Shown: in pieces, positions 45,001-48,000 of the stretch | Position numbering within the stretch: the stretch's first letter is position 1 | Layout: the number at the start of each line of letters is the position of its first letter | Assembly (NCBI RefSeq): GCF_029227855.1 | Contig: NZ_CP074356.1 | Source: Escherichia coli | Lineage (GTDB): Bacteria > Pseudomonadota > Gammaproteobacteria > Enterobacterales > Enterobacteriaceae | DNA length: 64,000 nucleotides | Reading direction: 5' to 3' (one strand) | Made by a program: the position numbers

Positions 45001-48000
45001 ACCGGTGGCGCTCACGCCGCGGTGGTGACAGCGGTAGCTAAAGCTGCGTTTAACTCGGCGGTTGATGCTGTACGAGCAGGCGGTCGTGTTGTGGCTGTCG
45101 GTCTGCCGCCGGAGTCTATGAGCCTGGACATCCCACGCCTTGTGCTGGATGGTATTGAAGTGGTCGGTTCGCTGGTCGGCACGCGCCAGGATCTCACAGA
45201 AGCCTTCCAGTTTGCGGCCGAAGGCAAAGTGGTACCGAAGGTCGCCCTGCGTCCGTTAGCGGACATCAACACCATCTTTACTGAGATGGAAGAAGGCAAA
45301 ATCCGTGGCCGTATGGTGATTGATTTCCGCCGCTAAGAGGCTTTGCTGCGACTGCCATGATCGGGTCGCAGCCTGTTTTGCGAGACGCTTTCCGCAATTT
45401 CACTCTTCTTCTTTTCCTCCCCCATCTTTCCCCTCACAATTCGCGAAAACGTAGCGAAATTTGTTGCGCTGCACGGAACAATAGTGATAATGTTCCTTTC
45501 GAAGGAACAAGGATGAAGAGATGATAATGAATTTCAGACACAAGGGATTGCGTGACTTGTTTCTTCTCGGCAAAACCTCCGGCGTTATACCGACGCAAGT
45601 CAAACGATTACGCCACCGACTCGCTGTGATTGATGCAGCAAGCTGTCTTGCTGATATCGATATGCCCGGTTACCGACTACACCCGTTAAGCGGTGATCGC
45701 GATGGAATTTGGGCGATATCTGTCTCGGGCAACTGGCGAATCACATTTGAATTCGTCAATGGCGATGCATACATACTGGATTACGAGGACTATCACTAAT
45801 GAAAATGGCCAATCATCCCCGCCCGGGGGACATTATTCAGGAATCACTGGACGAGCTTAACGTCAGCCTGCGCGAGTTTGCCAGAGCAATGGAAATTGCG
45901 CCCTCAACGGCAAGCCGATTGCTGACAGGAAAAGCGGCGCTCACTCCGGAAATGGCGATTAAACTTTCCGTGGTGATCGGCAGTTCGCCGCAAATGTGGC
46001 TGAATCTGCAAAACGCCTGGAGTCTGGCAGAGGCAGAAAAAACGGTGGATGTGTCGCGACTGCGCCGTCTGGTTACGCAATAAAATAAATATCCTCCGGC
46101 ATAGCCGGAGGTTTTTCAAATGCGCCTATAAGGCTCTCTTACCAGCCGCGCCCTAACAGGCGCACACGATCTGACATTTGCATCCAACTTCGTTACTTAC
46201 GGCCCGTAAACGGGCTGCCCGGATAGGGAATCGATAACTGCTCTCCCATTTTATCCTCTTCAAGCTGGTGCTTTATGTAATCCTGTATCTTCGCCGTGTT
46301 CTTACCCACCGTATCGACGTAGTACCCTCTGCACCAGAACTCCCTGTTCCTGTATTTGAATTTCAAATCACCAAACTGCTCGTAAAGCATCAGACTGCTT
46401 TTCCCTTTCAGATATCCCATAAAGCCGGATACGCTCATTTTGGGCGGGATCTCCACAAGCATATGGATATGATCTGCACAGCATTCAGCTTCCAGAATCC
46501 GTACGCTTTTCCACTCACACAGCTTTCTCAAAATACTGCCTATTGCTCTACGCTTCTCTCTGTAGAACACCTGTCTTCGGTATTTTGGCGCAAAAACTAT
46601 GTGATATTTACAGTTCCATCGGGTGTGCGCTAAGCTCTTTTCGTTCCCCATTGGGACCCCCTTTTGATTTCTTGTTTGACACTTGCAGTTGCCAGACCGC
46701 AAAGTGTTTTAACAAATCAAAAGGGGTTTTAATAACTGGCTCAAAGCTGAAAGCTTTCCGGAACCCCCAGCCTAGCTGGGGGTTTTCTGTGCACAAAAAA
46801 TGGCGCTTCTTAAAGCGCCATTTTCAGCTTAAAGTTCAAAAGAGATTATATCCCTTCTTCACTCTCTTTTTTCGCTTCTGCCTTCTCGATTTCACGATAC
46901 CAGCGCGGATGGTGTTTCTTCGCCCAGCGACGGCTCACCTTTCCTTCGATCATCCCTTTAATCGATCCTTTCACCCAGAATGCCATATACATATGGATCA
47001 GGATGGCGTGGATCAGGATGATACCCGCAGCCGCGTGGATCAGCAGGCTATAACGGACAACCTGTATCGGGAAGTACTGCGCAAAGTACGGACGCCAGAT
47101 AATCACCCCGGTCACCAGCAGCACGAAAATCATGCTCATGATCGACCAGAACATCATCTTTTGCCCGGCGTTGTACTTACCGACATCCGCCACTTTGTGC
47201 TCATTGCCTTTTAATACTTCGACAATGTTCAACAGCCACGGAATATCTTTCTTATCCGGGATGTTGTGATGCACAAAACGCACAAACATAAACATCAGCG
47301 CGACGAAAATCGCAATGCCGAAGAACGGGTGCAAAATGCGTCCCATCTGCGGCGTACCGAAGGTTTGCGTCAGCCATTGCAGCGTCGGGAAGAAGAACGA
47401 AATCCCGGACAGCGCCACCAGGAAGAAGCAAATCACCACGGTCCAGTGACAGGCGCGATCAATAAACTTGGTGCGCACAATCATTTTCGACTTACTCATG
47501 ATGATCCTCCTCGTCATCGTCCACTTCCTTATTCGGGCCAATACCGATGTAGTGGAAAATCAACCCGGCAAAAGTGGCAATAAAGCCAGCCGCTGCCAGC
47601 GGTTTCAACGCGCCTTTCCACAGGCTTACCGAGGTGTCGATCTTCGGATCTTTCGGCAGACCGTGATACAGCTCCGGCTGATCGGCGTGATGCAGCACGT
47701 ACATAACGTGCGTACCACCGACCCCTTCCGGGTTGTAGACGCCAGCATGTTCGTAACCACGCGCTTTCAGTTTCGCCACGCGCTGTTCCGCCAGCTCCAG
47801 CATCTCCTTCTTGGTGCCGAAGTGGATAGCCCCGGTCGGACAGGTTTTCACACAAGCCGGTTCCTGGCCGACGCTGACGCGATCGACGCAGAGCGTGCAT
47901 TTATATACCCGGTTATCCTCTTTGTTGAGGCGCGGAATATTAAACGGACACCCGGCAATGCAGTAACCACAGCCGATGCAGTTTTCCGACTGGAAATCAA

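Follow-up and report, generated by a model that had tools for sequence, protein, structure and literature searches.

An intact higB-like toxin gene upstream of yddM in Escherichia coli: family and ancestry of a chromosomal toxin-antitoxin pair, and loss of its toxin gene

What is the small open reading frame (ORF) that precedes yddM in some Escherichia coli strains and is missing from others, and which of the two states is the older one? This question is raised by a stretch of 64,000 nucleotides from an E. coli genome (contig NZ_CP074356.1, assembly GCF_029227855.1; hereafter the window). The original prediction, made from the sequence alone, described an intact higB-like toxin gene upstream of an antitoxin in the yddM position: a 92-aa ORF of the RelE/ParE superfamily, overlapping through TAATG a 94-aa ORF with an Xre-type helix-turn-helix (HTH). 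Both ORFs are present at the predicted coordinates, and the prediction is borne out by a HigB family match, a full catalytic set and a partner of the HigA family. We conclude that the two genes very probably form a chromosomal type II HigB-HigA operon with the toxin gene first, in which, by homology, the toxin would cleave mRNA in the manner of HigB and YddM would both neutralise the toxin and repress the operon.

The pair is correctly identified but already known. Both genes are annotated by the Prokaryotic Genome Annotation Pipeline (PGAP), where the toxin is labelled RelE/ParE family toxin, the pair is catalogued as higBA in TADB 3.0, and the structure of the antitoxin has been solved. Since the pair is annotated, catalogued and in part structurally solved, it carries little weight as a discovery. 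It does offer a natural series for the fate of a chromosomal toxin-antitoxin (TA) module, with the operon intact (the strain analysed here, CFT073, NRG857c, ATCC 25922), frameshifted (ST131) or deprived of its toxin (K-12 and most others). Antitoxin protein and operator block do not differ between members of this series.

Family and layout of the gene pair

The toxin matches the Pfam family HigB-like_toxin (PF05015) over profile positions 2-91 of 91 (E=1.4e-17; 64.4 bits, cut-off 27). This is the sole Pfam family reached at E<=0.01; ParE_toxin gave no match at that threshold. The NCBIfam model RelE_StbE is matched below its threshold (17.8 vs 27.9), as expected for HigB and not for RelE proper. 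Alignment with HigB of Proteus vulgaris plasmid Rts1 is ungapped across 92/92 residues and contains 52 identities (56.5%; E=8e-32), the matched structures being 4mct, 4px8 and 4ypb. Judged by this full-length identity to a solved HigB, the toxin is likely to adopt the microbial RNase (RelE-like) fold.

The original prediction proposed the conserved catalytic residues as a check on the toxin and their lack as a refutation; the toxin passes this check. All six residues of P. vulgaris HigB (His54, Asn71, Arg73, Asp90, Tyr91 and His92) are retained at identical positions, and they are invariant across 17 orthologues from four genera. The roles of these residues in mRNA cleavage by P. vulgaris HigB were described by Schureck et al. 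(PMC5027501); Arg73 touches the scissile phosphate and Asn71 adjoins His92.

The antitoxin belongs to the NCBIfam equivalog TIGR02607 (antidote_HigA; E=4.5e-27, 93.7 bits vs cut-off 47.7) and carries an N-terminal Pfam HTH_3 domain. Its sequence is 100% identical to K-12 YddM (WP_000781370.1) and to PDB entries 2ICP/2ICT, which published work assigns to HigA of E. coli CFT073 (PMC6987408). P. vulgaris HigA is matched over residues 7-87 (E=1.3e-18). Such family and structure matches (Pfam, NCBIfam, PDB chains) exclude that either ORF occurs by chance.

Toxin stop codon TAA (45797-45799) and antitoxin start codon ATG (45799-45801) share one A, giving the TAATG overlap of 1 nt. Reversed gene order with adjoining or overlapping genes is the layout of HigBA operons, and both the toxin-first order and the overlap agree with it. 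Orthologues preserve the gene order, and the overlap is kept in 16/16 of those in which the antitoxin start can be placed. Ribosome-binding signals are found in front of both genes: AAGGA or AGGGA is preserved at the position of the toxin Shine-Dalgarno sequence in orthologues, and GAGGA lies 9 nt upstream of the antitoxin ATG, within the final toxin codons. The one-base overlap would tie translation of the antitoxin to that of the toxin.

The following outline of toxicity, neutralisation, cleavage specificity and operator binding is drawn by homology from P. vulgaris HigBA. Free toxin would enter the ribosomal A site and cut mRNA between codon nucleotides 2 and 3, with preference for A-rich codons. 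His54 would serve as the base and Tyr91, backed by Asp90 and His92, as the acid, while Arg73 would steady the transition state. A YddM dimer would sequester two toxin monomers and so neutralise them; joint inheritance of the two genes and the parallel purifying selection on them speak for this indirectly. Finally, YddM, alone or in complex, may repress the operon at two TGTT(G/C)C-N7-GGAACA repeats that lie over the -35 region and the -10/start region.

Promoter region and transcript end

These two repeats precede the toxin gene. Unit O1 reads TGTTGC-N7-GGAACA (45462-45481) and unit O2 reads TGTTCC-N7-GGAACA (45491-45510); they are spaced by 29 bp, and their inner half-sites also make GGAACA-N10-TGTTCC. 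Matches of this type occur nowhere else in the window. When 20 upstream regions are aligned, the half-sites are seen to be kept across Escherichia, Citrobacter and Buttiauxella/Cedecea, K-12 included, while the flanks diverge. A candidate -35 hexamer, TTGCGC (45464-45469), falls in the first unit, and a candidate -10 hexamer, GATAAT (45486-45491), abuts the second one, the spacer being 16 nt. The two hexamers would fit a weak sigma-70 promoter. An RpoD site has been mapped in the K-12 adhP-yddM spacer by genomic systematic evolution of ligands by exponential enrichment (SELEX; PMC3946193), and the promoter assignment rests on this published site together with the cross-genus conservation. In the P. 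vulgaris hig operon, two operators for HigA dimers lie across -35 and -10 (PMC12266136). The layout observed here is analogous, and the two units are putative operators.

Farther upstream, the module is bounded by a terminator-like hairpin of adhP (Table 1). It is kept in the toxin-less K-12 allele; its fold is statistically weak (z = -1.16). Between this hairpin and the hig promoter lies a polypyrimidine tract, CTCTTCTTCTTTTCCTCCCCCATCTTTCCCCTC (45403-45436). Toxin-bearing Escherichia alleles have this tract, and the shortened K-12 spacer largely lacks it.

The 3' side of the operon is altered by an insertion. The pair had been placed beside an IS200 element, and IS200C is indeed found directly behind the yddM stop codon. 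Plasmid-borne IS200C copies align to window positions 46082/46084 to 46799/46801 at 99-100%, and the empty sites of ATCC 25922 and K-12 served as comparison for the boundaries. The element also contains a full-length match to STnc490, an Hfq-binding RNA from the 5' untranslated region (5'UTR) of IS200 tnpA according to Rfam; this match confirms that the left end of IS200C faces fdnI.

A strong terminator had been reported after the pair. The hairpin and its T run are real, but they are part of the inserted element and not the operon's own: the hairpin lies within sequence common to all IS200C copies. The terminator scan was positive for it on both strands, and the surrounding stretch folds with -17.2 kcal/mol (z = -4.06). 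Immediately behind the yddM stop codon, ATCC 25922 and K-12 have AAAAAAATGGC(A/G)C…GCGCCATTT, which is the native terminator hairpin shared with convergent fdnI. This hairpin (-16.7 kcal/mol, z = -3.45 on the plus strand; -19.2 kcal/mol, z = -4.36 on the minus strand) has been pushed about 715 bp away from yddM. IS200C has landed in the A run just behind the yddM stop, and the first terminator-like structure met after yddM is now its end hairpin instead of the native terminator. Since the hairpin of the element is terminator-like in the direction of yddM, it probably still ends the yddM transcript. The annotation should be corrected in this respect: in this strain, the terminator after yddM comes from IS200C and not from the operon.

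The same insertion type was observed in the toxin-less E. coli GPEC673 (NZ_CM142805.1, locus L006, about 1488-2250), where IS200C, in the same orientation, occupies this A run behind the yddM stop. The junction is offset by 2 nt, CAATAA being followed by TAAATATCC in GPEC673 vs CAATAAAA followed by TAAATATCC in the window (46081-46090, 46790-46801). The two insertions are independent of each other and point to the A run in front of the terminator hairpin as a likely hot spot for IS200C.

Table 1. Features of the higB-yddM locus and of the hipBA module in the window
Feature	Position	Strand	Basis and remarks
hipB	about 2233-2499		intact; hipB end = hipA start; translated sequences and published NRG857c list (TA21)
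hipA	2499-3821		intact; same basis as hipB
adhP terminator-like hairpin (GCTGCGAC / GTCGCAGC)	45345-45372	+	inverted repeat; upstream module boundary
Candidate promoter and two operator-like inverted-repeat units	45462-45510	+	repeats and cross-genus conservation
Toxin Shine-Dalgarno sequence (AGGA)	45510-45513	+	7 nt 5' of toxin ATG; read from sequence
higB-like toxin gene	45521-45799	+	92 aa, ATG start, intact; WP_000605676.1 in identical record
yddM / higA antitoxin gene	45799-46083	+	94 aa, ATG start, N-terminal Xre-type HTH
IS200C	46084-46800	-	directly 3' of yddM stop; ends ambiguous by about 3 nt (A runs)
IS200C end hairpin (CCTCCGGC-ATA-GCCGGAGG)	46093-46111	both	8 pairs, 7 of them G-C; T run on either strand
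tnpA of IS200C	46193-46651	-	Y1_Tnp / transpos_IS200 family matches; PGAP annotation
STnc490 5'UTR RNA in IS200C	46661-46784	-	Rfam full-length match, 144.6 bits
Native bidirectional terminator of yddM and convergent fdnI (AAAATGGCGCTT-CTTA-AAGCGCCATTTT)	46797-46824	both	

Ancestry and loss of the toxin gene

The pair is flanked by maeA and adhP upstream and by fdnI, fdnH and fdnG, on the opposite strand, downstream; these neighbours identify it as the yddM locus of E. coli. According to a cross-species scan with one genome per species, the pair occupies this maeA/adhP-fdnI position also in E. albertii NBRC 107761, in an Escherichia sp. and in more than 10 Citrobacter species. The toxin protein of E. 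albertii NBRC 107761 is identical, and within Escherichia the toxin varies by 0-1 residue. Citrobacter orthologues are 83-89% (toxin) and 87-93% (antitoxin) identical. Pairs from Buttiauxella/Cedecea are more distant (62-64% and 74-81%, respectively), and neither adhP nor fdn was detected in the fetched flanks of their loci. Against Citrobacter, synonymous divergence (dS) reaches 0.7-1.7, i.e. near saturation, and the ratio of nonsynonymous to synonymous divergence (dN/dS) is 0.04-0.11 for the toxin and likewise 0.04-0.11 for yddM. Both genes are thus under purifying selection. Given the shared locus and the low toxin dN/dS, the toxin-bearing state is ancestral and selected, and the K-12 state is derived. 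This refines the published idea that horizontal transfer accounts for the variability of such toxins.

How frequent is each state in E. coli? Among 5426 complete genomes, in 5414 of which the region was matched, toxin DNA is present in 1328 (24%), always as a single copy; 1329 of 1330 match locations are chromosomal. In the other genomes, similarity sets in 5 nt upstream of the yddM ATG: the toxin is deleted, while promoter/operator region and yddM are kept. The K-12 adhP-yddM spacer is 145 nt long and, according to pairwise and 20-sequence upstream alignments, lacks the toxin ORF together with its Shine-Dalgarno sequence. Still present in it are the terminator of adhP and the block TTGTTGCG…GGAACAATAATGATAGTGTTCC…GAAGGAAC, followed by CACTAATG and yddM. 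Deletion between two TAATGAA repeats (45526-45532 and 45797-45803) was considered as the origin of this allele and rejected, the observed junction …GGAACGCTACTGAGAGTAAAGACACTAATG being different from the predicted product.

Two further ways of losing the toxin were encountered. In E. coli O25b:H4-ST131 (NZ_OY019088.1; L004 701-978, corresponding to window 45521-45799), codon 33 has lost one nucleotide (CGA to C-A), which leads to a stop at codon 36. The gene is flagged "frameshifted" by PGAP, and the yddM gene behind it is intact and identical. The same 276-nt match span was seen in 12 of 29 evenly sampled toxin-bearing genomes, so that the frameshifted form, of which one copy was inspected, is probably common among toxin carriers as judged by match lengths. 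E. coli O157:H7 TR01 (NZ_CP033605.1; L005 598-751) has a different deletion. Of the toxin gene, the final 45 nt are kept, 100% identical to window 45753-45797, and the upstream spacer is of B2-like type, joined within the operator region (…GGAACAATAAT to CGTCAATGG…). Partial matches of this kind occur in only 2 of the 5426 genomes. From its sequence, TR01 represents a second, independent toxin-deletion allele.

Toxin genes also decay in Citrobacter, in parallel to the loss in E. coli. In Citrobacter sp. On2M (L025), C. portucalensis A60 (L026) and Citrobacter sp. FP75 (L036), the toxin is truncated or frameshifted; yddM is retained in two of these, L025 being without a yddM match.

For the antitoxin in E. 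coli, we compared 11 alleles, namely window 45799-46083 and the yddM genes of loci L001, L003-L006 and L038-L042. The protein is identical in 10 of them, whether the toxin is present or absent. At the nucleotide level, 28 of 285 sites are polymorphic, distributed 4/1/23 over the three codon positions; amino-acid changes are confined to one sampled strain, 08-3918 (E80A, T93A). Near-invariance of YddM regardless of toxin status suggests a role independent of the toxin; YddM may be a regulator or may serve as an anti-addiction antidote. K-12 YddM has been studied only as a candidate or orphan transcription factor (PMC6237786; PMC9283627). In another of these alleles, that of E. coli 90-3040 (NZ_CP027459.1, L042 1-55), the annotation lists adhP, beside yddM, as a pseudogene because of an internal stop.

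These observations allow a broader view, which we put forward tentatively and hold to be somewhat less than an even chance. Rather than being a recently acquired "pathogen-associated" module, higB-yddM may have resided since ancient times, by vertical inheritance, at the maeA/adhP-fdnI locus of the Escherichia-Citrobacter lineage. Its toxin may have been lost several times independently, and YddM may have a selected function of its own: it might regulate host transcription or act as an "anti-addiction" antidote to HigB toxins entering the cell.

One more TA module lies in the window. The original prediction counted the pair as the second type II module of the window, besides hipBA; both hipB and hipA are present and intact (Table 1), and higB-yddM is therefore the second one.

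Alternative explanations and known systems

Several points weigh against a working HigB-HigA operon. We found no published toxicity or cleavage test of the E. coli toxin in the literature, and a 2024 review on adherent-invasive E. coli (AIEC) states that such pairs "remain to be characterized". Two basic residues near the mRNA path of P. vulgaris HigB are changed (R48M and K57S; a third change, K52R, is conservative), and the toxin is less basic than its P. vulgaris counterpart (isoelectric point, pI, 6.9 vs 8.0); in P. vulgaris HigB itself, toxicity was not abolished by single alanine changes at these positions (PMC5027501). Repeated loss or breakage of the toxin in E. coli and Citrobacter implies that it is dispensable. 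As for regulation, a strict consensus promoter scan of 45300-46900 called no sigma-70 site, and because of this we can only infer the -35 and -10 hexamers; the operators are assigned from the conservation footprint alone.

Part of this evidence would suit a toxin that is intact in sequence but attenuated, i.e. a decaying module that causes no arrest at native levels and in which yddM is effectively the sole working gene. Deletion of the toxin in about three quarters of E. coli genomes, the codon 33 frameshift of ST131, the independent deletion of O157:H7 TR01 and the broken Citrobacter copies all point in that direction, as do the replaced R48 and K57 and the lowered pI. Nevertheless, we regard attenuation as improbable: the toxin dN/dS at saturating synonymous divergence reflects long-term purifying selection, the 17 orthologues show no variation in the catalytic residues, and no more than a single residue differs within Escherichia. 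Another explanation takes the toxin for a ParE-type DNA gyrase poison instead of an mRNA endonuclease. It draws on the generic PGAP name and on the label ParE-2 used by Bustamante and Vidal, who assigned the toxin only to the "ParE_toxin superfamily (cl21503)". Given that HigB-like_toxin is the only Pfam family matched and ParE_toxin is not, that identity to a ribosome-solved HigB extends over the full length and includes His54 and the C-terminal D-Y-H triad, and that the partner is a HigA equivalog and not ParD, we consider this explanation very hard to sustain.

Among the known systems closest to the preferred HigB-HigA operon is the family archetype, HigB-HigA of Rts1; structures of its toxin have been determined in the free and in the ribosome-bound form. 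Both systems have the toxin gene first, a 92-aa toxin alignable without gaps and the same catalytic set, an antitoxin with N-terminal Xre HTH, and two operator-like inverted repeats over the promoter. The present toxin differs from Rts1 HigB by R48M, K57S and its lower pI. Furthermore, the Rts1 pair is plasmid-borne, whereas higB-yddM is chromosomal, at a conserved locus and vertically inherited. No close plasmid copy was found: identity of at least 90% occurs in 3 records only, the best of which is a chromosome-like record of 4.9 Mb, and other matches are below 60%.

K-12 itself encodes a HigB-HigA pair of the same named family, YgjN-YgjM, again with the toxin first (PMC7232551). It is, however, of another sub-type and occupies another locus (fadH-rlmG). 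The HTH is C-terminal in K-12 HigA, in contrast to its N-terminal position in CFT073 HigA/YddM and in P. vulgaris HigA (PMC6987408). In B2 strains such as NRG857c and CFT073, an orphan higA stands alone at the YgjN-YgjM locus.

The nearest relatives are the same genes at the same locus in other E. coli strains, namely CFT073 HigA and TA20 "ParE-2/HigA-2" of AIEC NRG857c (TADB TA027334). Bustamante and Vidal (2020) reported TA20 as common to NRG857c and CFT073, with HS and K-12 possessing the antitoxin only. NRG857c positions 1,526,229-1,526,791 were confirmed to be this locus. Its antitoxin is 100% identical and its toxin (WP_000605675.1) is one residue off (S41C); the fdnI-yddM-toxin-adhP arrangement is the same, and hipBA is likewise located about 35 kb away. 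The window copy differs in having IS200C after yddM, where CFT073 and NRG857c are without it. Orphan yddM of K-12 (b1477), with identical YddM and the same promoter/operator block, represents the same locus from which the toxin has gone.

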